DNA of 28,196 nt from Fistulifera solaris (Eukaryota), in NCBI GenBank assembly GCA_030295235.1, contig AP026154.1, forward strand, positions 558,001-586,196, written 5' to 3'. Of this stretch, positions 6,232 to 28,196 are shown piece after piece. Position numbers and translations under genes: made by a program. The notes under the pieces were generated by a model. It saw only the letters and a program-made list of their open reading frames with translations. It was not told the DNA's origin and did no database searches. Every line of letters begins with the position of its first letter. Position 1 is the stretch's first letter.

Positions 6232-8019
6232 ATGACGGCAAACAAGAAAATCATAAATTGCACGGAAGACGCTGTTGCAGAAATGATACAAGGATTGTTG
6301 CGGCAATATCCGGAAACATTAAAGTGTTGCGAAGCTCCCTATCAAAATATTCTCATCGGTTCTCATTATCATACCAAAGAAAGAACTGCCGCATCTTTTA
6401 CTCCTATTTCTCTGATAAGCGGTGGAGGCAGCGGTCATGAACCCAGTCATGCCGGTTGGATCGGTTGCGGTATGTTGACGTCGGTCGTCTGTGGAGGAAT
6501 CTTTGCGAGTCCTTCGATTGCTGCCATTCGTGCGGCTTTACGGGCCGTTCCTTCCGATGCGGGAATCTTGGTCATCGTAAAGAATTATACCGGCGACTGT
6601 TTGAATTTCGGCATGGCGATTGAAATGGAAAACACTAGCAACAATACTTCACCGATTGAAATGGTAGTTGTCGCGGAGGATGTCGCCTTGCCGCGAGAGA
6701 AGGGCGTTACCGGAGCACGGGGTCTTGCTGGAACGGTTTTGATTCACAAAATTGCGGGCGCGGCCGCTGCAGCGGGTTATTCGTTGTCACAAGTCGCCAC
6801 GTTAGCTCGAAACGCGTGTGCTAGGATGGGGACGTTGGGGATTGCGTTGGAAACGGTAGCGGTTCCGGGTGCTCCAGCAACGTCGTCGAGTCGTCTGCCC
6901 GATGATTGCTTTGAAGTTGGATTGGGGATACATGGAGAAGCTGGATTGAAGCAATGTCCTGCCATGACGGCGAATGAAATGGCAACCACGATGATTGTGG
7001 CCATACAGTCGTACGGTCGCATTATGAACGACGACGATGATACAATTGTCCCCATGTTCGCGTCGGGTGATGAAGTTTGTGTATTGGTGAACAATCTTGG
7101 CGGTACTTCGGAATTTGAAATGTCAATTTTGGCCAATGCTTGTGTCACAGAGTTAGAAGCGGTGCATCACGTCAAAGTGCGATTATTGTACGTGGGAACG
7201 TACATGTCGAGTTTTAACATGCATGGAGCGTCCTTGACGATTTTGAATTTGACCGACGAAATGATTGAATTATTAGAAGCTCCCACAAGTGCACCGGCAT
7301 GGAAGAAATGTCAATATTCAAAAGATCCGAATGCAATGGTTCCTGTGCCTGTTCCACCTGAATTGAAAACTAAAAGTACTTATAGAGCTCTACCACCACT
7401 GATGATCCAAGACTTTTCCACCGTTGCAAGAAAGATGGTCGCTGCTGCAGCACAAAGCTTGATTGACCATGAACCATTGATTACGAAGTATGATACTATT
7501 GTAGGCGACGGTGATTGTGGTTTGACCATGAAACGCGGAGCCGTGGCTCTTTTGAAATGCAAACACTTGGACACATCGCATCCAGTTCGATTGTTTACGC
7601 AAATTGCCGATCTTGTTTCGAGCAGTATGGGTGGAACATCGGGTGTCTTGTTGGAACTAGGCTTTCGGAAAATGGCCACTTACATGTCGCGTGCCAAGGA
7701 TCGGAATATTACGGCGAGAGAACTTTTTGCCGCGTTTCAGCAAGGTGTTCAAGCTATAAGCTTCTACGGAAGAGCAACACTCGGAGCGAGGACCATGCTG
7801 GATGCTCTGATTCCGGCCAGTCGAGTTGAAAACGCAGATTTGTTACAAGGCATGGCACAAGCCGCTCGTCACGGAGCCGACAGTACAGCAACTATGGGAA
7901 AAGCAACGGCCGGCCGAAGTAATTATCTTTCCGAAGTGTCGCTGCAAGGCACACCGGATCCTGGCGCCATTGCCATGGCGCTGGTCTTGGAAGCCATAGC
8001 GGCAAGTGTCTCATCCTAA
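6232..8019 (+). CDS. DAK1: Dihydroxyacetone kinase / triokinase-FMN cyclase (Dak1 + Dak2 domains)
   Basis: 595 aa with ISGGGSGHEPSHAG, IVKNYTGDCLNFGMA, GLGIHGEAG, VNNLGG, GDGDCG, MGGTSG, RTMLDAL and PDPGA. Confidence 0.96.
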   Translation: MTANKKIINCTEDAVAEMIQGLLRQYPETLKCCEAPYQNILIGSHYHTKERTAASFTPISLISGGGSGHEPSHAGWIGCGMLTSVVCGGIFASPSIAAIRAALRAVPSDAGILVIVKNYTGDCLNFGMAIEMENTSNNTSPIEMVVVAEDVALPREKGVTGARGLAGTVLIHKIAGAAAAAGYSLSQVATLARNACARMGTLGIALETVAVPGAPATSSSRLPDDCFEVGLGIHGEAGLKQCPAMTANEMATTMIVAIQSYGRIMNDDDDTIVPMFASGDEVCVLVNNLGGTSEFEMSILANACVTELEAVHHVKVRLLYVGTYMSSFNMHGASLTILNLTDEMIELLEAPTSAPAWKKCQYSKDPNAMVPVPVPPELKTKSTYRALPPLMIQDFSTVARKMVAAAAQSLIDHEPLITKYDTIVGDGDCGLTMKRGAVALLKCKHLDTSHPVRLFTQIADLVSSSMGGTSGVLLELGFRKMATYMSRAKDRNITARELFAAFQQGVQAISFYGRATLGARTMLDALIPASRVENADLLQGMAQAARHGADSTATMGKATAGRSNYLSEVSLQGTPDPGAIAMALVLEAIAASVSS

Positions 8020-10240: not shown

Positions 10241-10891
10241 CTCCTTTTGTATATAGTTTTAATTCAATATTTAGTTGATGCATAATAAATTTCAAGATAA
10301 TAGTTCATTGCATTGAGATGTGTGAGTCAGACGAAATACTTTCCGTTTTGGGAACACGAAGCGACATAATAATCGGACCGCTTATTCCCTGTTGAAAACC
10401 GGTCACCTGTCCGATCGATCGGCGAAGTCCGAAATGACCGTGAGAGGGTGGTTTTCGGTTTTCTCAAGCGCAGGTTTTATGTGTGTTTCGGTCCTTCGCC
10501 GAATCGTGTTACGAAACGGAAAGTCGATGTTGAGTCTCCACCAAAATGTCCATGGGTACGGTATTAAGATTGCTAAGTAAAGGATTCCCTTTCCGTTTTG
10601 TTACGTCTTTATTTTTTGCTCTGTCACTTTGACAGTACATAGGGTAACAAAAGAACGTCAATGAATGACGTAATGCATGACTTATGTCTTTTTCCGCGAA
10701 GCCGTTTCTTGACGAGACGGTTTTCATTTTCATCGGTTTCCATCCTAATAAAGAAAACGGGTCAGTCACACGAAACATCAAGAACATTATTTTACAAGCT
10801 GATCGATTCGTAAACCCACAAAAAGGGAAGCTCATCAAAAACAACAACATCACAAAAAAGGATCTATTTGATCTTAACATACGAAGAAAAG

Positions 10892-11740
10892 ATGAACGCA
10901 TTTACCATGACGCTCACCTCGACGGAGAAGCGCGAAGAAGCGAAAGACAAGATTGCCGTCTTGCAACGCCAAGAAGCCACCACATATCGCCGACCGTTGC
11001 CGTCTTTTGGCTCCGATAAGCACTGGAGACAAAGCATTGTCGAATGGATGTACGACATTGTTGATTCGGCTAGTATGCAACGTGATGTCGTCGCTGTGGC
11101 TTCCTATTATCTCGATGCTACGTCGGTTTCGACGCGTGAAGAATATCAATTATGTGCGATGACTGCCTTGCAGCTTGCGATGAAACTTTATTGCAGTTCT
11201 TCGATGAGCTGGTCGAGTCTAGTGCGACTGTCACGCGGAGCCTTCAATGAAGACGACATTCGTGTTATGGAGAATCGCATTCTCGAGTCCTTGAAGTGGC
11301 GTGTCCATCCCCCAACGGCCAATTGCTTTCTTCGAGAATACCTGCAGTTGCTGCCCGAGAGCGTTGATACCAATTCACTCTACCGTCTTGAGCAAATATC
11401 ACGCTTTGTCACTGAATTTGCGAGCTGTTTGAATTCATTTTGCCAATATCAGCCCTCGCATTTGGCCTTCGCTGGAATGTGCGTGGCGATGCAGCGAATG
11501 GAGGTTGGGATGGTGACCAATATTCACGAATGCATTGAAGCTCACACGGGAATGAACTTTGACGCTATTACGACGCTGTGGACAGAACTGCAACAAAGTC
11601 TCGCTCACAATGTGTCCTTGCATGAATTGCAAGTCAGTATGGCAGCACTGTGCTCCCCGGTCCCGAGAGATACCGTTTCGCCCTTGGTCATCAAACCAGT
11701 GCTCCAATTCGGCAGGTCGCCTCGTCAAGTATCCTGCTAA
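10892..11740 (+). CDS. Cyclin (diatom-specific cyclin type)
   Basis: Cyclin box WRQSIVEWMYDIVD...RDVVAVASYYLD...YQLCAMTALQLAMKL...MENRILESLKWRVHPPT, and a C-terminal SPRQV. First ATG is at 10892. Confidence 0.92.
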   Translation: MNAFTMTLTSTEKREEAKDKIAVLQRQEATTYRRPLPSFGSDKHWRQSIVEWMYDIVDSASMQRDVVAVASYYLDATSVSTREEYQLCAMTALQLAMKLYCSSSMSWSSLVRLSRGAFNEDDIRVMENRILESLKWRVHPPTANCFLREYLQLLPESVDTNSLYRLEQISRFVTEFASCLNSFCQYQPSHLAFAGMCVAMQRMEVGMVTNIHECIEAHTGMNFDAITTLWTELQQSLAHNVSLHELQVSMAALCSPVPRDTVSPLVIKPVLQFGRSPRQVSC

Positions 11741-11899: not shown

Positions 11900-12541
11900 T
11901 TAGGAAGCAGTTATTTGCGTTTGTTCGACGCCTTGTGTGATTTCTGCCACAGAGGAAACCGGCTTTTTCCGATGCTTTCCGAAGTAGCAACGCATGTCGT
12001 ATGCATCTTCACCATCGGCATAATATCCTTTTTCAATATCATTCACCTCATACTGCAGTGTCTGAGAGTACAAATGAAATGCGGCCCGATTCGACTGGCG
12101 AACATGTAAGGAAACATATTCCGCTTGAAAGACGTGTTCCATTTCATACTGCGAACGTCGCATCAATGCCGTCGCAATCCCCCGTTTGCGGTGCGTCCGC
12201 AAAACGCTCAAACTGGTAATATGCCCGTGTTTACTGCTACTCTCTTCATTTTCTTCCATTTTCGCAAGAACGTAGCCCACAATCTTGCCGTCGAAATCTT
12301 CCGCGACCCACAACAATTGCGGCCAGCTCAGCAAGTGATAGAAATAGTATTTCATCTGTACGAAAGAACAAAAGAAGCAGGGAGTAAGTACGACAGTCGA
12401 CAATCATATCCAAAAAGCATCAATTAAATAATACTCCGTAATGTCAATTGCTCTCCTCACCTGATAATTCTCTGGCAAACACCACAAGTTTGTCGTTTGC
12501 ATTTGCAAGAGATCGTTGACAGTTGCTTGACGAATATTCAT
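11900..12541 (-). CDS. NAA10: N-alpha-acetyltransferase 10 (NatA catalytic subunit, ARD1); exons 12541-12461 and 12355-11900
   Basis: Exon 1 [27 protein letters not shown] joins exon 2 [14 protein letters not shown]...[18 protein letters not shown]...[11 protein letters not shown] across a GT-AG intron. Confidence 0.96.
12356..12460 (-). other. 105-nt spliceosomal intron of NAA10
   Basis: Donor CAG|GTGAGG and acceptor TACAG|ATG. Removing it restores the conserved LPENYQMKYY. Confidence 0.92.
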
Positions 12542-20449: not shown

Positions 20450-23212
20450 TTACACAACAAATAGTAGACACATTAGCAACCATACAGCACCTCGTCCAAA
20501 CAACACCAATCCGTCTCTTCTTTTCGTAGATGATCCATTTTCCTCACCAGCGCGATCGGATGTCGGCAAAGTTCTTATCAAAATAGTTTCGTCTTCGTTG
20601 TCGGCATTCAATGCCGCTACCACCACGATTTCATCGCTGGATTGCGGAATGGCGACACTCAACAATTCAAATTGATATCCTCCCATCTCATTCGTGACAC
20701 TTCTTTGAATAACCGCGCCATTCATTGTTTCCACACGCACTGTAGCATTGGCAACAAACGCCAAGGACGGTGCGGAACCCATAATCAGACTGGTTCCCAC
20801 GGCACTCAAGCGCTGTTGTAATGTCGTTGGGTCCACAAGTGACGGATTCGTAGTGGTAGTATCAACGGCACCGATGCACGGTGCATTGATCCAAATGGCC
20901 GTCTCTTGCGCGGTAAAACCGAAATCGTCACTCATCAGCGGTGCTGAAGAACTGACTTGATCGGCGATGTAGTTGATCGGCAGATCATTCACCCACGCCA
21001 ATTGACGAAGCGAGCTGTACGAAGCACCATCCATTCGTTCGACATCAATGATATTGCGCATACCGAAACTCGGACCACCCACATTGCTCGTCGTGACACC
21101 GTTGGTGTATTGATTCAAATAATACAGGAGCGCCGCTTTCAATGATTGGCTGTCGGGTAAAAGAAAGGAATCGGTGAAGAACGTCAAAGCGCGACTGGGA
21201 TCGAATACATTGGCCGCTAACTCATTCGATGCTTCCATCACAAATGCTTGCACTTTGGCACCACGATACCAAAACTCCGATACAGCATTAATCGTAGCAT
21301 TCCCTTGGATCACGGGGTCTTGTAAGGCGGATCCCATTGGAACAATCGGTGCATTGACATAAATACCCGATGAAACAGTTTCGGCGTTGCTGGACAACAC
21401 GTTGCCTTCGCTACGATACGTATCGGCGGCGTATCCCGATGGCGGTCGCACATACACAATCTCCATGTAATCCGAATACCTCTCTGCATCAATGTGATGG
21501 TACACAACAATGGGTGCACCAATCATTTGCGACAAATCAGTTGGTGTCACGACATAGAGCGTATTCCAAGGAAGATCCGCTGTCGTCGTTTCAGCTGTAA
21601 TCAAATTTGGTGATGTCTTGGCGGAATACATGTAGAACATGAACATCTGAGTGGGTTGATCATTGTACCAGAGGGAATGTGCCGAAAAAAGTCTTGTTTC
21701 CGGATTGTATCCTAGTTGCGACGGCGTCACGATGCCGTTGCTTGATTGCGATTCATAAATGGTGGGTGGCGCACCGCCAATATAATCATTGACATCCACT
21801 GTACGAAAGACGGTACCATCTGCACGCAAGTACACGACAGCGACTCCGTCTGGAATAGTCGAGCTCAAAACCGTCATTTCATACACACCAAACTGATCCG
21901 TTTGCGTATCGGCCAAGACCGTGCCCTGTGGCGTCAATAATTCAACGGCTATTCCCTCTACGTTTCGAAACGTCCACTCACTTCCCATAATACGAGTCGA
22001 ATTTTGATTCACAGAAACCGATGTCAAGAACGATATGCCGGTGGGTCTTGTCAAAGTATCGTTGCTGGACGCCGAGACAGAACCGACAATGGGAGCATTG
22101 ATGAACCAAGCTATCAACTCCACTTGAAATCCATTCGCGTCAGTCAAATCATTTGCCGACTGCACTTGATCGGCTCTAAAATCCATAGGAACACTCTTGA
22201 CCCAGTTCATTTGCACCAATGGCGAATAGAGTGGATTTGTTCGATCATATGGCACCACATTTCGCATCCCTGCCACACTCGGACCACCATTGTTCACTCC
22301 GGCTGTCACATTTGTAGTATAGGCATTTAGAAAATACAACGGATTGCTTTGTACGCTCCCTGTTACAGCAAATTGAGAATTGATGAGAATTTGCAAACTG
22401 GGGTCGGAGTTCGATTCCGGGCGTGTGTACGCAAAGAATTCGGCTCCGCGCACATCATTCGTTTCCATAACATACATCCAAACATCGACACCCTTATACC
22501 ATGCAATTACTGGATCAATTGGCGCTGTTATTTCTGACTCGTTAATCGTAGTTTGTAGTTTTCTTGTCCGAGTCGTGTTGGTCGTAGCGTCTGTCAAATT
22601 TCTGTCGGCATCCGTCGTGTTCGTATCACCCATACCTGTCGAATTCGTATCCTCCTCTACAATTTGACGTATACGAGGATCTTGTAAACGACTATTGATG
22701 GGAACCAACGGCATATTGACGACAATTCCGGTCGATTGTACGGGTTGTCCACTTTGCAAAACATCCAATTCACTGCGAAACAAATTGGCTTCGTAGTAAT
22801 CCGTCGGTACCGGCACCAGCAGCAACTCAGCAAAATCTGAGTACGAGATGTTGTCTAAATGATGATACGCAAGGATCGGACGTCCCATAACACCTGTCAA
22901 GGCAGTGTCGTTTGTCATCAAATAGATTTTATTCATCGGAACATCATTACTGCCCGACAAGCTCGTGTAGCCTTCTTCATCGCTGTAAACACGGAATCTG
23001 TAATACGATACGACTTGATTGTCAACATATTGCGTTTGTACACGAAACACATTGTTGACGAAATCGTAATCTTCATTTTGAAAACGAATCGGCTCCGTTT
23101 CGTAAGCGGTCAACGGCGTCGTCGTTATCCAGTCGTCCGCGACACCGTTGACGAATGCAGCATATCGCGTGACCAGAAAAAGCTGTAAGAAAAGCGACAG
23201 AAAGTATTTCAT
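20450..23212 (-). CDS. Large secreted, probably GPI- or membrane-anchored protein built from two homologous halves
   Basis: About 920 aa from MKYFLSLFLQLFLV (signal peptide), with a hydrophobic C-terminus AVWLLMCLLFVV. Duplicated blocks include GGPSVAGMRNVV...YSPLVQMNWV versus GGPSFGMRNII...YSSLRQLAWV. Confidence 0.88.
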   Translation of the reverse strand: MKYFLSLFLQLFLVTRYAAFVNGVADDWITTTPLTAYETEPIRFQNEDYDFVNNVFRVQTQYVDNQVVSYYRFRVYSDEEGYTSLSGSNDVPMNKIYLMTNDTALTGVMGRPILAYHHLDNISYSDFAELLLVPVPTDYYEANLFRSELDVLQSGQPVQSTGIVVNMPLVPINSRLQDPRIRQIVEEDTNSTGMGDTNTTDADRNLTDATTNTTRTRKLQTTINESEITAPIDPVIAWYKGVDVWMYVMETNDVRGAEFFAYTRPESNSDPSLQILINSQFAVTGSVQSNPLYFLNAYTTNVTAGVNNGGPSVAGMRNVVPYDRTNPLYSPLVQMNWVKSVPMDFRADQVQSANDLTDANGFQVELIAWFINAPIVGSVSASSNDTLTRPTGISFLTSVSVNQNSTRIMGSEWTFRNVEGIAVELLTPQGTVLADTQTDQFGVYEMTVLSSTIPDGVAVVYLRADGTVFRTVDVNDYIGGAPPTIYESQSSNGIVTPSQLGYNPETRLFSAHSLWYNDQPTQMFMFYMYSAKTSPNLITAETTTADLPWNTLYVVTPTDLSQMIGAPIVVYHHIDAERYSDYMEIVYVRPPSGYAADTYRSEGNVLSSNAETVSSGIYVNAPIVPMGSALQDPVIQGNATINAVSEFWYRGAKVQAFVMEASNELAANVFDPSRALTFFTDSFLLPDSQSLKAALLYYLNQYTNGVTTSNVGGPSFGMRNIIDVERMDGASYSSLRQLAWVNDLPINYIADQVSSSAPLMSDDFGFTAQETAIWINAPCIGAVDTTTTNPSLVDPTTLQQRLSAVGTSLIMGSAPSLAFVANATVRVETMNGAVIQRSVTNEMGGYQFELLSVAIPQSSDEIVVVAALNADNEDETILIRTLPTSDRAGEENGSSTKRRDGLVLFGRGAVWLLMCLLFVV

Positions 23213-23315
23213 TTTGATTTTTTTGATTGTGTAATTGGCAAGTCGAAAGAAAAGGAGTGTCATTCGATTGCCAAGGAACGAATGAGGCTTCGTCGTTTTG
23301 TTTCTCGCGAGTCAA

Positions 23316-23335
23316 GGGGGGGGGGGGGGGGGGGG
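23316..23335 (+). repeat. G20 homopolymer
   Basis: 20 consecutive G about 100 bp upstream of the start of the minus-strand 920-aa gene. Confidence 0.85.
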
Positions 23336-23604
23336 TAGATTGTTTGAGGGGGCCGAGTTGTCGGAATGGCAATCTTCTTTACAATCTGTATCACGCCAAA
23401 GCGTCTAAATATAAAGATAATTACCAGTACCGGTACCTATTCAACGATGAACGATGAGGAGTGAGGAGTTGTGTTTCAAATCCGAGAGTGTTTCGATTTG
23501 CTGCTTAAGTGCAATACCTGGTAAGAATGATACTAAATCAATAATGTACTCCGTATCTTGCAAGAAGGCATCCGTGACTGCAAAGACGTACACAACGGAA
23601 AAGC

Positions 23605-23847
23605 AGGGTTAGGAATTTGGAAATTGGGATATGGAACTTGGAACTTGGAAAAGGAACTTAGAACTAGGTAAAAAGGAAGTAGGAATCAGCAACAACGGAG
23701 TCAGGAAGACGGAATAGAAAACTCAAGAAGAACACCTGCCCATTAGAAAAGACAGGCCCATTTTCCGCCATCCAAGTCATTGCAAGCTTATGTTCCTGCA
23801 AATCAGAATCAGGAATTGTGTTGGCTTCTCACAATATTATCGCGAAA
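23605..23847 (-). repeat. Family A subtelomeric element, proximal copy
   Basis: The first 115 bp or so (AGGGTTAGGAATTTGGAAATTGGGATATGGAACTTGG...GGAATAGAA) match 27334-27454. A 34-bp stub of the same start lies at 23848-23881. Confidence 0.8.
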
Positions 23848-23881
23848 TAGGGTTAGGAATTTGGAAATTGGGATATGGAAC

Positions 23882-24035
23882 GTTAGGGTTAAGGGTTAGG
23901 GTGGAAAAAACGGCTATAGGAAGAAATTGAGCTAGAACTACGAAAACCAGCCTGATGAGACATGTAGGGTGATGGAGAGGATGCAATGAGAATGATGCAA
24001 CCAGGAATACAAGTGGCAGGTTGCACAAGAGAAGA
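23882..24035 (-). mobile_element. Family C (CRE retrotransposon) short 3'-end-only copy
   Basis: Three telomeric units, then TGGAAAAAACGGCTATAGG...GCACAAGAGAAGA, nearly identical to 24381-24514. Confidence 0.88.
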
Positions 24036-24361
24036 TTAGGGTTAGGAATTTGGGAATTGGGATATGGAACATGGAACTTGGAACAAGGAAAGCGTAGAAG
24101 TAGGAAGTAGGAATTAGAGAAGCGGTAACTTAGAAGTAGAAAGTAGGAATTTTAGTAGTGGTAGCATTACATGGAAGTAGGAATCAAAGCAGGAGGAATT
24201 GAGGAAGAAGTGAAGCTAGGAAAAAAGGGGGAATAAGGGGAAGAATAAGAAGGAAAGGGAGACAAGAGGGGATAGGGAATTTAGAGGAATGAGGAACAAT
24301 GAGCACTTGCAAAAACTGTTGTATCTATCAATGTTTTGCTCCTGTAAAAATATATTTGCAC
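24036..24361 (-). repeat. Family B subtelomeric element, copy 1 (shortest)
   Basis: Purine-rich unit TTAGGGTTAGGAATTTGGGAATTGGG...TATATTTGCAC, repeated at 26122 and 26515. Confidence 0.9.
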
Positions 24362-26110
24362 GTTAGGGTTAGGGTTAGGGTGGAAAAAACGGCTATAGGA
24401 AGAAATTAAGCTAGAACTACGAAAACCAGCCTGATAAGACACGTAGGGTGATGGGGAGGATGCAATGAGAATGATGCAACCAGGAAGACAAGTGGCAGGT
24501 TGCACAAGAGAAGAATGGACTCCAGATGGGAGAGCAGCAGCTCTAATAGAGCAAAAGACCTGAGCCATCCCAGGTGGGTCTATCGCGCGGAGGGGCTCCA
24601 TCCCTCAGCGCAGCAGCATGCTGACAGACCGGACCAGTGAGATACTCAGGGCGTGATCGTACAAATCCACACCGCGGTAGAATACGATCGCCCCCACTTT
24701 TTTGGACAGGGCGGCGAGCCAGGGCGTCGCGAGGCGGCCGTGGCTTGCTCACCCATCAACCCATCCACAGAAAAGAGCGAGTGGAGTAAAGTCTAGGTCG
24801 GCGTGCCCTGCAGGGCTCTTCATAGAGGTCCCGCTTCTCACGCTCCTGCTTGGCAAGGACTTTAAAGGGGTCCTGCCCGAATGGGATGGGGCATCGGTGT
24901 CCGTGACTCGGGCGTCGAAGATGGTGGTCTTACCCGGGTCCAGAACCCATGGGTAGAGATGTCTCCACGCAACTCCGAAGCTTCTGCGTCTAAGCCAACA
25001 GCCGGTGTGTCGCGATAGGTGTTGATTTTGTGTTCATCGCGAACCGCACGGGGCTGAAGGCCTGTGCGCAGAGGGACATGACTTCCATTTTCAGGTCATC
25101 ATGTCGCATCGTTACCAGTCCACCCTTCTTGCACGTTTGGGAGTGCGCTGAGAGTGAAGGGTTTGCCACACCATCACAGGTGACTGGTAACGCGGTCACT
25201 GGGAGACCCATTCGGATGCGGGCGCTGTCGCGGAACTCATCGCGGGAAAGGTCCGTACCGTTCAGGGTCTGGGGAAGGACAGAAAGCCAGAGACCCGTGT
25301 GTCTGGCTTTAAGGAGAAGCGGCGAAGTTTCTCGCGGGCCCTCCTACTGACAGATCTGCTGGAGCTGGGCAGCATCTGCAGCCTATCTCTCCCCCTGCAG
25401 TGCAAAGCGCCGGCTCCCTCGCATCGCGACTGGTGTGCCGCAACATTCAAGGGGCTGTTTCGAGAGAAGACTGTCGGCGGATTCCGTGATGGAGAGAGAG
25501 CTGGAGTGATTGTGGGCAGCCGTGGAGGTGGGGTTGAGGATCCCAAGGCCTGCAGACTTAACGCTCAGCTTCGTCAGGAGACGCAGTGCATCTCCTGGCG
25601 CTTCATTCTACGCCGAGGGAGGGAAGGGAATGAACTTCTCCCAGTTTCACGCTCCAATGGGGCAAAGGCTTCACCGCGGTCGGGAAGCACTCTCTGCAAG
25701 TAAAGCCACTCAGCCTGGAGTGACTTGCAGAGGCCAGCATATGCAGTCTGTGGATACTGCATTGCGGCTTTCGCCAAACCACGGACCCCAAAGCACCACG
25801 CATCGATCTGTGGCTTAAGCCACTCCGGCTTGATCAATGGGGCTTCCAATGAATCCTCCCAGGTAGCGAGCTCCTGTGGCATACTGAAAGTGAAATGCCG
25901 CCAAGTTGCGCTGGGCCTGAGCCTGGTGTGCTTGGCGGCAGACCAGGATGCTCTTCCGGTTCGGGGGAAGTAACCACGGTTTGGGGCCAAAGCGCTGCAA
26001 CAAAAGTGTTGCATTCACAATGCCACGGACTGTTCCCGCCATAGCCATGTCATTCGGCATACCAGGGCTGAACAACATCCTTGGTAGCGAATTTGCTTGG
26101 CGAGTGGTGA
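24362..26110 (-). mobile_element. 5'-truncated CRE-clade non-LTR retrotransposon whose 3' end abuts telomeric repeats
   Basis: Minus-strand RT, zinc knuckle and RLE motifs are followed by a 3' UTR of about 160 bp ending in (CCCTAA)3. The 5' end is cut just upstream of YADD. Confidence 0.9.
24543..26100 (-). pseudogene. CRE-type RT / zinc knuckle / restriction-like endonuclease ORF, frameshifted
   Basis: Read across frames: VQPWYADD (1-bp insertion, about 26049-26061), RGYFP..KSILV, TGARYLGGFIG, PQTAYAGL.KSLQAEWLYLQRV, CDG...HSQTCKKGGLVTMRHDDLK, LRGDISTHGFW...TIFDARVTDTDAPS, FTPLALSVDG, SMLLR, WDGSGLLLY*. Confidence 0.9.
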
Positions 26111-26513
26111 TAGGGTGAGGGTTAGGGTTAGGAATTTGGGAATTGGGATATGGAACATGGAACTTGGAACAAGGAAAGCGTAGAAGTAGGAATTAGAGAA
26201 AGCGGTAACTTAGAAGTAGAAAGTAGGAATTTTAGTAGTGGTAACGTACATGGAAGTAGGAATCAAAGCAGGAGGAATTGAGGGAAGAAGTGAAGCTAGG
26301 AAAAAAGGGGGAATAAGGGGAAGAATAAGAAGGAAAGGGAGGCAAGAGGGGATAGGGAATTTAGAGGAATGAGGAACAATGAGCACTTGCAAAAACTGTT
26401 GTATCTATCAATGTTTTGCTCCTGTAAAAATATATTTGCACATTTGGACCCTCTTGCTTCCGTGATTTTTGCTTTCCGGATTGCGTAATGAAAACTGTTT
26501 GTGAAACTGTTGC
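26111..26513 (-). repeat. Family B subtelomeric element, copy 2
   Basis: Same unit as 24036-24361, extended by about 70 bp to GTGAAACTGTTG. Confidence 0.9.
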
Positions 26514-27333
26514 GTTAGGGTTAGGAATTTGGGAATTGGGATATGGAACATGGAACTTGGAACAAGGAAAGCGTAGAAGTAGGAAGTAGGAATTAGAGAA
26601 AGCGGTAACTTAGAAGAAGGAAGTAGGAATTTGAGTAGTGGTAGCATTACATGGAAGTAGGAATCAAAGCAGGAGGAATTGAGGAAGAAGTGAAGCTAGG
26701 AAAAAAGGGGGAATAAGGGGAAGAATAAGAAGGAAAGGGAGACAATAGGGGATAGGGAATTTAGAGGAATGAGGAACAATGAGCACTTGCAAAAACTGTT
26801 GTATCTATCAATGTTTTGCTCCTGTAAAAATATATTTGCACATTTGGACCCTCTTGCTTACGTGATTTTTGCTTTCGGTTAAGTAATAAAAACTGTTTGT
26901 GAAACTGTTGTGTTAGTACCTCTCTTATCTACTTGGCACAATATAAACATTGTTAAACTGTTGTTTTATTACCTCTCTTATCTACTTGGCACAATGAAAA
27001 CATTTGCAGTCACAATCCTTCACGTTTGGGTCAATTTCCACAACCTTAATAAGAGTTGTGCCATCATAGTTGACACCATCCCTATAAGTTGTCTGTGTGT
27101 GGTCATATAGCTTTGTCGTTGCAATGTTTACAATGCATGAGTCATTCTTGTATGCAATCCCCTGCAAGGCATCCAAAACCAGTTTCACGCAGTTGTCGAT
27201 GTCAGGAGCATTTGTGACAAATTTGGGAGCTGTTGGTTTCAACAGCCATTCTTATGATGCTGGTCCAAGTAAGAAATGGGTCTTGGGTCTTGGAAAGTAG
27301 AACTTTCACGGTGATTGAGCATGGATTGCCATT
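26514..27333 (-). mobile_element. Family B subtelomeric element, copy 3 (longest), containing the RusA-like ORF
   Basis: The same unit continues past the ends of copies 1 and 2, with no telomeric linker, directly into the RusA-like coding sequence. It is cut at 27333 by GGGTTAGGG. Confidence 0.8.
26982..27333 (-). pseudogene. rusA: RusA-family Holliday junction resolvase, N-terminally truncated
   Basis: NGNPCSITVK / FYFPRPKTHF...S*EWLLKPTAPKFVTNAPDIDNCVKLVLDALQGIAYKNDSCIV matches the RusA pattern FxFPRPKxH...PDxDNxxKxxxDAL...xD. There is one in-frame TAA (27252-27254) and a 1-bp shift near 27304. Confidence 0.87.
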
Positions 27334-27454
27334 GGGTTAGGGTTAGGAATTTGGAAATTGGGATATGGAACTTGGAACTTGGAAAAAGGAACTTAGAACT
27401 AGGTAAATAGGAAGTAGGAATCAGTAACAAGGGAGTAAGGAAGATGGAATAGAA
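27334..27454 (-). repeat. Family A subtelomeric element, distal copy
   Basis: Matches 23605-23719 with a few substitutions. Confidence 0.85.
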
Positions 27455-27476
27455 GGAAATGTTGGAAATAAGGGAA

Positions 27477-28196
27477 AGGGTTAGGGTTAGGGTTAGGGTT
27501 AGGGTTAGGGTTAGGGTTAGGGTTAGGGTTAGGGTTAGGGTTAGGGTTAGGGTTAGGGTTAGGGTTAGGGTTAGGGTTGGGGTTAGGGTTAGGGTTAGGG
27601 TTAGGGTTAGGGTTAGGGTTGGGGTTAGGGTTAGGGTTAGGGTTAGGGTTGGGGTTGGGGTTAGGGTTAGGGTTAGGGTTAGGGTTAGGGTTAGGGTTAG
27701 GGGTTAGGGTTAGGGTTAGGGTTAGGGTTAGGGTTAGGGTTGGGGTTAGGGTTGGGGTTAGGGTTAGGGTTAGGGTTAGGGTTAGGGTTAGGGTTAGGGT
27801 TAGGGTTAGGGTTAGGAGTTAGGAAGGTTAGGAGTTAGGAGTTAGGAGTTAGGAGTTAGGGTTAGGAGTTAGGGTTAGGAGTTAGGAGTTAGGAGTTAGA
27901 GGTTAGGAGTTAGGAGTTAGGGTTAGGAGTTAGGGTTAGGAGTTAGGAGTTTAGGGTTAGGAGTTAGGAGTTAGGAGTTAGGAGTTAGGAGTTAGGAGTT
28001 AGGGAGTTAGGGTTAGGGTTAGGAGTTAGGGTTAGGGTTAGGGTTAGGGTTAGGAGTTAGGAGTTAGGAGTTAGGAGTTAGGGTTAGGAGTTAGGAGTTA
28101 GAGAAGGGTTAGGGTTAGGGTTAGGGTTAGGGTTAGGGTTAGGGTTAAAGAGTTAGGGTTAGGAGTTAGGGTTAGGGTTAGGGTTAGGGTTAGGAG
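27477..28196 (+). repeat. Telomere: (TTAGGG)n with occasional TTGGGG, then mixed TTAGGAG/TTAGGG from 27812
   Basis: About 720 bp of tandem G-rich repeats running to the end of the window. Confidence 0.98.

Follow-up and report, generated by a model that had tools for sequence, protein, structure and literature searches.

A truncated RusA resolvase gene in a telomere-proximal array of mobile-element fragments in Fistulifera solaris

The 28,196-nucleotide (nt) stretch of Fistulifera solaris DNA examined in this study (GenBank assembly GCA_030295235.1, contig AP026154.1, forward-strand positions 558,001 to 586,196; "the window" refers to this whole stretch) closes on the right with 720 nt of telomeric repeat (27477-28196), the G strand lying on the plus strand, and the window terminates at a chromosome end. 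The last 4.6 kb ahead of the TTAGGG telomere is a pile of truncated mobile-element copies, and the part between unique DNA and the telomere (23606-27476) forms a head-to-tail array of eight units belonging to three repeat families, here called A, B and C. The longest copy of family B joins a noncoding tail that ends in telomere-like letters to a fragment of a gene for RusA, a phage-type Holliday-junction resolvase. It is plausible that this RusA rides a telomere-seeking element of its own.

Anatomy of the array and its joins

All eight units share one orientation, with the 3' end toward the centromere and the 5' end truncated. At the left, every unit starts with 8-20 nt of telomeric repeat; its right end lies at a point of its own, where the tract of the next unit begins. 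The junctions carry telomere-like seeds of 1-5 nt, and three of them read C/GTTAGGG (slash at the join). The innermost unit is linked to the unique DNA by GGGTTAGG alone. When the units were compared with the whole window by blastn, copies of the three families were confined to 23605-27476, and positions 1-23600 held none. The features, located mainly by blastn and a table of the junctions, are as follows.

23606-23847, minus strand: family A unit 1 (A1), 242 nt, innermost
23848-23881, minus strand: family A unit 2 (A2), the 34-nt 3' module only, truncated at 23881
23882-24035, minus strand: family C unit 1 (C1), about three telomeric repeats and then a 3' untranslated region (UTR) fragment of a reverse transcriptase (RT) element, truncated at 24035; 96.1% identical to 24362-24514
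24036-24361, minus strand: family B copy 1 (B1), 3' UTR part only; 97.9% identical to B3 (MAFFT, blastn)
24362-26116, minus strand: family C unit 2 (C2), a 5'-truncated, frameshifted non-LTR (long terminal repeat) retroelement, identified by three-frame translation, comparison with the proteins P0011 and P0012, and profile matches
26122-26513, minus strand: family B copy 2 (B2), with its right end at a GTTAG seed that falls inside the 53-bp repeat; 94.1% identical to B3
26515-27333, minus strand: family B copy 3 (B3), the longest B copy, noncoding part plus RusA fragment
26515-26981, minus strand: noncoding part of B3, 467 nt of CT-rich 3' sequence beyond the RusA stop codon, ending ...CCCAAATTCCTAACCCTAA
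26897-27002, no strand: 53-bp tandem duplication, 91% identity, repeating the last RusA codons and the stop codon
26982-27333, minus strand: RusA pseudogene fragment, codons 106-221 of the relative P0001 plus the stop codon, with the catalytic DIDNCVK...ND block intact
27334-27476, minus strand: telomeric seed GGG and family A unit 3 (A3; 27337-27476, 140 nt), outermost
27477-28196, plus strand: terminal telomere, G strand, with 70 TTAGGG, 29 TTAGGAG (all distal to 27812) and 6 TTGGGG

The three copies of family B all begin at TTAGGGTTAGGAATTTGGG, as seen in a MAFFT alignment of the three and in a blastn search of B3 against the whole window (extents 24036-24367, 26122-26518 and 26515-27333). 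Their right ends differ (24361, 26513 and 27333), and telomeric repeat follows each of them. The matches are long and near-identical and not due to chance, and the strand on which RusA is read makes the fixed end the 3' end. Four different sequences precede the left end of B, three in the window and one in a sediment metagenome contig described below. Since B2 and B3, which lie side by side, show the lowest identity (94.1%, compared to 97.9% for B1 and B3), separate additions from diverged sources fit better than local tandem duplication. The truncation point of B2 falls inside the 53-bp duplication of the last RusA codons and stop codon (26897-27002), which lies in the 3' UTR.

The bodies of families A and B are unrelated, and no clear coding frame was found in A1. 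The last ~55 nt on the sense strand are common to both families, with two differences, and end in ...TTCCTAACCCTAA. This shared 3' module is CT-rich, its terminus (CCTAACCCTAA) is complementary to the telomeric G strand, and it is periodic in degenerate 7-mers (GGTTAGG AATTTGG GAATTGG ...). The 3' ends of A and B carry reverse-complement telomeric repeats, CCTAACCC(TAA), and family C ends in (CCCTAA)3. RNAalifold returned no consensus structure for the module (0 pairs), and the tail pattern had no matches in the viral_contigs and genome_contigs collections. No poly(A) or poly(T) occurs at the fixed end, where the left ends read TTAGGGTTAGG followed by AATTTGG with no run of T, and AATAAA or ATTAAA is absent near it, the only such signal in B lying 456 nt from the end. 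The lack of both features argues against an ordinary processed pseudogene. The idea that the module is the 5' part of a telomerase RNA, copied by read-through of the template boundary, has no support from Rfam, which gave no match to telomerase RNA, and both A and B extend far past the short module.

The join between the B body and RusA recurs outside this assembly. Words sampled from B3 were present in one sequencing run (X1, 52% of the words) and in five metagenome runs (5-16%), and contigs from four runs (X1-X4) were aligned to 23300-27480. The metagenome contigs are independent of the assembly; X1 is perhaps the sample behind it and therefore not fully independent, it has no cover at 23440-23579 and 26240-26379, and depths in the runs were not taken as copy numbers. 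A 656-nt contig of X1 spans 26676-27334 with eight substitutions and five gap letters and amounts to a second copy with RusA directly adjoining the B body. Base 27307 is missing from this copy, and the RusA frame is thereby restored there. In X1, too, a truncated A is joined to the beginning of C (27375 to 24362). A 683-nt contig from the sediment metagenome (X4) consists of 61 unrelated letters, the B left end (24037-24151), ~135 further letters, and a match to 26966-27334 with 26 substitutions; this layout indicates that the B tail is linked to RusA in a diverged relative as well, and that the same B boundary follows a fourth upstream sequence. In a 934-nt contig of X3, 189 nt match 27145-27334, and the other 745 nt, which lie beyond the match, presumably extend upstream of the truncation point.

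The RusA fragment and the long RusA subfamily

The minus-strand open reading frame (ORF) at 26982-27242 matches the Pfam RusA profile PF05866 over positions 76-116 of 124 (46.6 bits against a gathering score of 22.8, E 6.3e-12) and holds PDIDNCVKLVLDAL...KNDS, the window reading DIDNCVK...ND. RusA homology extends beyond this ORF to 27333, where it is cut by GGGTTAGGGTTAGG, with telomeric repeat directly from 27334. An intact RusA of the same kind, P0001 (221 amino acids, aa), was found in a large protein collection and is 95% identical over the ORF. Compared to P0001, the window keeps only codons 106-221; the fragment has four amino-acid differences, including a glutamine changed to a stop (premature TAA at 27252-27254), and one extra base near 27303-27307 shifts the frame. 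No intact, translatable RusA gene was found at this locus, and because codons 1-105 are missing, a base has been inserted and a premature stop codon is present, the window RusA is a dead, 5'-truncated copy.

These results bear on an initial annotation of the window, made from the letters alone. Its description of three B copies with one left end and right ends at 24361, 26513 and 27333 has the correct coordinates, and its assignment of the minus-strand ORF in the longest copy to RusA holds, as both the fragment and P0001 exceed the PF05866 cut-off. The fixed, telomere-repeat-anchored 3' end with variable 5' truncation was likewise borne out, with the RusA strand setting the 3' end and family C having the same layout. 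It had also described the RusA ORF as cut by telomeric repeat, which is correct for position 27333 and incomplete otherwise, the copy being disabled by the extra base and the premature TAA as well. A join of RusA to B unique to this locus would have told against the annotation, and the X1 and X4 contigs place the same join elsewhere.

Comparisons of fold were made on the intact relative P0001 and not on the window fragment. P0001 matches PF05866 over profile positions 2-116 (E 2.7e-18, 67.2 bits), and its AlphaFold2 (AF2) model, built from a 54-sequence alignment, has a pLDDT of 90.1. The best PDB folds found by Foldseek were E. coli RusA structures (1q8r_A, 2h8c and 2h8e; probability 1.0, TMt 0.66-0.70). 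Among the 54 sequences, D149, D151 and D169 never vary, and at least 90% retain K155; these positions align to RusA residues 70-76 and 90-91, and D70, D72, K76 and D91 of E. coli RusA are presumably the catalytic acidic residues and lysine. The PDB title "RusA D70N" hints at such a role for D70. By profile, fold and conserved residues, the P0001-type proteins are genuine RusA and belong to a conserved enzyme family.

Searching 1.84 billion representatives with P0001 by phmmer yielded 4003 hits at E <= 1e-3, of which 197 reached E <= 1e-10 and 17 reached E <= 1e-30. Approximately 55 representatives (clusters at 50% identity) match P0001 nearly over the full length, are 200-260 aa long and have their own start. 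Five further close relatives from the large protein collection are 214-237 aa long and 50-72% identical. The best 150 of the 4003 relatives range from 77 to 427 aa; with 427 aa as the longest, none of these 150 is fused to an RT. The close relatives all come from JGI, ENA or Logan environmental contigs, mostly of 1-4 kb, with the exception of P0001, which lies on a 55-kb contig, and no relatives of P0001 were found in the viral_contigs and genome_contigs collections. The atlas clusters nearest to P0001 are phage RusA, an observation that serves as a lead only.

Compared to the RusA of E. coli and lambdoid phages (PF05866; 1q8r, 2h8c), the P0001 type is alike in fold (TMt 0.70), in its Pfam match and in the D-x-D-N-x-x-K ... 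D block. It differs in being ~100 aa longer, with a C-terminal extension bearing a CxCxxC motif, in its N-terminal ~30 residues, which were poorly modelled (pLDDT 51-62), and in that relatives of this type are known from environmental contigs only. The long subfamily (P0001-P0066) carries both the C-terminal CxCxxC and an N-terminal G-x-P-R-P-Q block, neither of which occurs in phage RusA, and these additions may be metal-binding. CxCxxC was present in 41 of the 156 sequences examined. In a quick IQ-TREE phylogeny of 150 rows, from which six sequences shorter than 120 aa were left out, all 39 motif-bearing rows fell in one 66-row clade (SH-aLRT 83) and none among the other 76 rows, while P0001-P0005 formed a clade with 99% support.

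Family C and the surrounding DNA

The larger copy of family C (C2) is composed of (CCCTAA)3 at 24362-24380, a 3' UTR, an ORF stop at 24543-24545, a C-terminal Cys/His and acidic domain, and an RT from the YADD-equivalent region on. Its minus strand, read in three shifting frames, matches the C-terminal ~490 residues of two intact ORFs, P0011 (1127 aa, E 1.7e-30) and P0012 (989 aa, E 9e-19), at 41-50% identity. The match begins just before a W-Y-A-D-D block, which we take to be the RT active-site motif. A profile of four P0011-type proteins gave marginal matches in PDB to LINE-1 ORF2p RT cores (E 9e-4 to 2.6e-3) and to R2 (E 8.5e-3 and 0.014), and Pfam RVT_1 matched two of the four proteins below the cut-off (best E 6.6e-4). 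Pfam had no match on the family C ORFs of the window, and phmmer of P0011 against PDB had none. In the atlas clusters nearest to P0011, RVT_1 is found on 21-47% of members, which is again only a lead. Both C copies end 3' in about three telomeric repeats. Because of the matches to P0011 and P0012, the RT profile matches and the telomeric 3' ends, family C is a true, if decayed, non-LTR retroelement, laid out like A and B with a fixed 3' end at telomeric repeats and variable truncation at the 5' end. It represents a telomere-associated long interspersed nuclear element (LINE) in a non-fungal eukaryote, with (CCCTAA)3 at its 3' end.

The C terminus of P0011 and P0012, inspected by eye, contains a CxxC...H...C...RHDD region followed by conserved acidic residues and resembles the restriction-enzyme-like nuclease found in R2/CRE elements. 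Neither Pfam nor PDB gave a sequence match for this region, and the AF2 model of P0011 (four sequences, pLDDT 35.2) was unusable.

The proximal part of the terminal telomere is nearly pure TTAGGG, and in its distal third (27812-28196) the 29 TTAGGAG heptamers and six TTGGGG are interspersed among TTAGGG. The TTAGGAG-rich part may reflect a genuine variant repeat or, alternatively, base-calling noise of long reads. Ordinary eukaryotic genes lie farther upstream in the window, namely DAK (6232-8019), cyclin (10868-11740) and GNAT (11900-12403). The final gene before the array (20450-23263, minus strand) encodes a 937-aa protein with two similar halves, a signal-like N terminus and a hydrophobic C terminus; its Pfam matches are weak and under the cut-off (immunoglobulin-like or carboxypeptidase-regulatory-like). 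A run of ~22 G (23316-23337) lies just upstream of this gene, ~270 nt inward of the first array unit, and metagenome contigs terminate in G runs around this position.

Origin of the RusA-bearing unit and its relation to known elements

We favour, tentatively, a reading in which B is a non-autonomous RusA unit, similar to MoTeR2 alongside MoTeR1 or HeT-A alongside TART, that reached the chromosome end as a copy made by a trans-acting RT. B is read as a unit added recurrently by way of an RNA copy because the array anatomy and the C/GTTAGGG and short-seed junctions match known telomere-embedded retroelement arrays; these junctions and the seeds of up to 5 nt show the same signature as MoTeR truncations. 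B would then be the 3' part of a small transcription unit whose sole known ORF is a stand-alone RusA Holliday-junction resolvase of the 221-aa type, followed by a CT-rich 3' region of ~470 nt, the last letters of which (...CCTAACCCTAA) could pair with the telomeric G strand. Copying of the B RNA by the trans-acting RT onto a chromosome end, or into nicked telomeric repeat, would fix the 3' end. The distal 5' end would be shortened by incomplete copying or terminal erosion and then closed off at the telomere-like 1-5-nt seeds, whether by telomerase or by a further addition, and the copy in the window would be a dead, truncated by-product. The RNA intermediate, the trans-acting RT and a role of RusA at the telomere (for example, in cutting t-loops or recombination junctions) are what we infer beyond the observed anatomy. 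The proposal in the initial annotation that B is a retrotransposing telomeric unit encoding RusA is therefore upheld as regards an anchored, 5'-truncated unit carrying RusA, whereas its retrotransposition is plausible but unproven and the window copy is a pseudogene fragment.

Several observations weigh against this reading. No RT or Gag-like ORF was found in B, and no full-length B was seen, such that its 5' end and whole coding content were not observed. A search by blastn found no similarity between B and C or between A and C outside telomeric repeats, so sharing of the 3' end with the RT element was not found, and no RT carrying an A/B-type tail, the supposed source acting in trans, was seen. 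Rfam 15 gave no hammerhead or other match at E <= 1 on either strand of 23000-27600. The A/B module could be no more than an ancient, degenerate telomere tract, and not a tail that is transcribed. The RusA relatives resemble low-copy, stand-alone genes: the 90% cluster of P0001 has one member on one contig (55 kb), and a "near"-length search added only three fragments (64-67% identity), which is unlike a high-copy element in the protein collection. In a metagenome scan with the RusA alignment, a relative was encoded in 148 of 282 candidate stretches, 80 of which were kept, and the only one of the long type, L001, is a distant relative (41% identity, 1084 nt of DNA) that contains no telomeric repeat; the ORF adjoining it has no Pfam match. 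The GC content at third codon positions (GC3) of the RusA fragment is host-like (0.45, compared to 0.46-0.55 in four host ORFs and 0.61 in family C), in a small sample. Finally, the MoTeR study describes break-induced replication at interstitial telomere tracts with subsequent healing, which gives the same picture without RNA (PMC7367193).

There are several potential explanations for the position of RusA in this array. The main rival, which we consider less likely, is that RusA is a telomere-linked host gene, like the telomere-linked helicase genes of fungi, whose downstream flank starts in an ancient, degenerate telomere tract. A chromosome end that was broken or eroded would invade the short TTAGGGTTAGG tract at another end, and break-induced replication or unequal exchange, truncation and healing by telomerase would follow, with no RNA involved for A or B. 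The 7-mer-periodic, telomere-like left module of A and B, the host-like GC3 and the stand-alone, low-copy relatives agree with such an origin; in addition, the 1-5-nt seeds and the three C/GTTAGGG junctions match the de novo telomere addition described for MoTeR truncations, break-induced replication at interstitial telomeres is documented in such arrays alongside transposition (PMC7367193), and FoTeRs co-localise with host telomere-linked helicases (PMC12857005). However, the shared boundary offers only ~11 nt of perfect telomeric homology, little for repeated break-induced replication, and the two B copies that lie next to each other have diverged the most. The uniform orientation of the eight units fits 3'-end-primed complementary DNA, one family of the array is a true retroelement, and the same B boundary follows unrelated sequence in the environmental relative. 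An improbable variant involving RNA is that an ordinary host RusA mRNA was occasionally captured when an internal CCUAACCCUAA in its 3' UTR was mis-primed by the RT of a telomeric LINE, or by telomerase, from the G-strand 3' end. In that case the fixed end would be an internal priming site, copied toward the mRNA 5' end, and there would be no dedicated element. The absence of poly(A) at the fixed end, a nearby RT source in family C and the resemblance of the RusA relatives to ordinary small genes are compatible with such a capture, and the 61 non-telomeric letters before the B boundary in the X4 contig could be the remainder of the 3' UTR. It is harder to reconcile with three B copies from diverged sources on one telomere, or with the 55-nt module in the unrelated family A, which points to a specialised tail in repeated use and not to an accident.

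The initial annotation had alternatively considered an autonomous element with its RT upstream, and it is very unlikely that RusA is one ORF of a larger Terminon- or Penelope-like element whose RT, upstream of 27333, was lost by truncation. Terminons carry accessory nucleases and are usually met as 3' fragments (PMC6431247), and the 3' end of B has reverse-complement telomeric repeats. The Rfam search for a hammerhead ribozyme, a check that the annotation had called for, was negative over 23000-27600, B contains no RT, P0001 and the ~55 full-length relatives are short proteins of 200-260 aa that begin at a start of their own, the best 150 of 4003 relatives reach at most 427 aa, and the contigs encoding relatives are mostly 1-4 kb. 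Its suggestion of mobilisation by a Penelope-like RT found no positive evidence, the sole RT in the window being LINE-1/R2-like by profile, and mobilisation by the neighbouring element, which it had called CRE, is not indicated for a unit that lacks the 3' end of family C. A last possibility is chimeric joining of repeats near the telomere in a long-read assembly, in a highly repetitive region where the 29 TTAGGAG heptamers are perhaps base-calling noise; such an artefact is scarcely credible, as other contigs reproduce the join of the B body to RusA (X1), of the B left end to RusA (X4) and of truncated A to the C start (X1).

Telomere-specific retroelement arrays occur in flies, silkworm, rotifers and a few fungi, and the cargo of telomeric retroelements known to us consists of Gag, RT or accessory enzymes. 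A wider form of the favoured RusA-unit reading, which we consider doubtful, is that a protist clade would possess a small non-autonomous telomeric retroelement in which the sole protein is a RusA resolvase, the RNA has a telomere-complementary tail, and the resolvase may open telomeric junctions (t-loops or recombination intermediates) for addition. If true, this would connect a phage resolvase with the dynamics of telomeres in eukaryotes, make RusA with a telomere-complementary tail a new cargo for telomeric retroelements, and raise the question of whether a junction-cutting enzyme helps an element to reach chromosome ends. Even under an ordinary reading, the long stand-alone RusA subfamily with its C-terminal CxCxxC and the non-LTR element with a (CCCTAA)3 3' end in a non-fungal eukaryote would stand. 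A literature search from the angles of retrotransposon, diatom, eukaryote and horizontal transfer, covering listings and the beginnings of abstracts, found nothing linking RusA to telomeric elements.

The array has the anatomy of known telomere-embedded retroelement arrays. In Magnaporthe oryzae, MoTeR elements are arrayed head to tail and separated by 0.5 to >20 repeats; of 23 truncated copies, 17 carry seeds of 1-7 nt, and five of the six exceptions end in C; MoTeR1 encodes a CRE/SLACS-like RT with a REL-ENDO domain, and MoTeR2 is its non-autonomous partner with an unrelated insert (PMC7367193). FoTeR 3' ends in Fusarium are followed by 3-7 repeats (PMC12857005), and the ~3 repeats after the 3' end of family C are similar. 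The window shares with these telomere-targeted elements the head-to-tail layout in TTAGGG telomeres, the 3' end toward the centromere, short interstitial tracts (8-20 nt in eight of eight co-oriented units), seeded 5' truncations, and the pairing of a non-LTR element that encodes RT with a short, putatively non-autonomous unit whose insert is unrelated. In contrast to MoTeR, B shares its 3' module with A and not with the RT element C, and its insert is a recognisable RusA gene, whereas that of MoTeR2 is without obvious function. Moreover, the host is not a fungus, as the window has cyclin and DAK genes. The MoTeR and FoTeR elements belong to the CRE/SLACS clade; family C is LINE-1/R2-like by profile.

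The endonuclease-deficient Penelope-like elements Athena and Coprina and the Terminons resemble the array in their reverse-complement telomeric repeats at the 3' end, head-to-tail arrays and 5' truncation by short telomeric repeats, and also in their accessory nuclease ORFs and captured host genes (PMC8557442, PMC6431247). They differ in that no hammerhead lies next to the 3' repeats in the window (Rfam, 23000-27600), the sole window RT is LINE-1/R2-like by profile and not of Penelope/Athena type, and no giant multi-ORF unit like a Terminon was seen in the window. HeT-A of Drosophila is a telomeric unit that is likewise non-autonomous: it has a single ORF, which is not an RT, and a long 3' UTR, uses the RT of another element and forms arrays with the 3' end toward the centromere (PMC5537684), as proposed here for B. 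However, HeT-A codes for Gag, has poly(A) at its end and takes the place of telomerase, whereas the window has telomerase repeats, a telomere-complementary tail and, in family B, a nuclease ORF.

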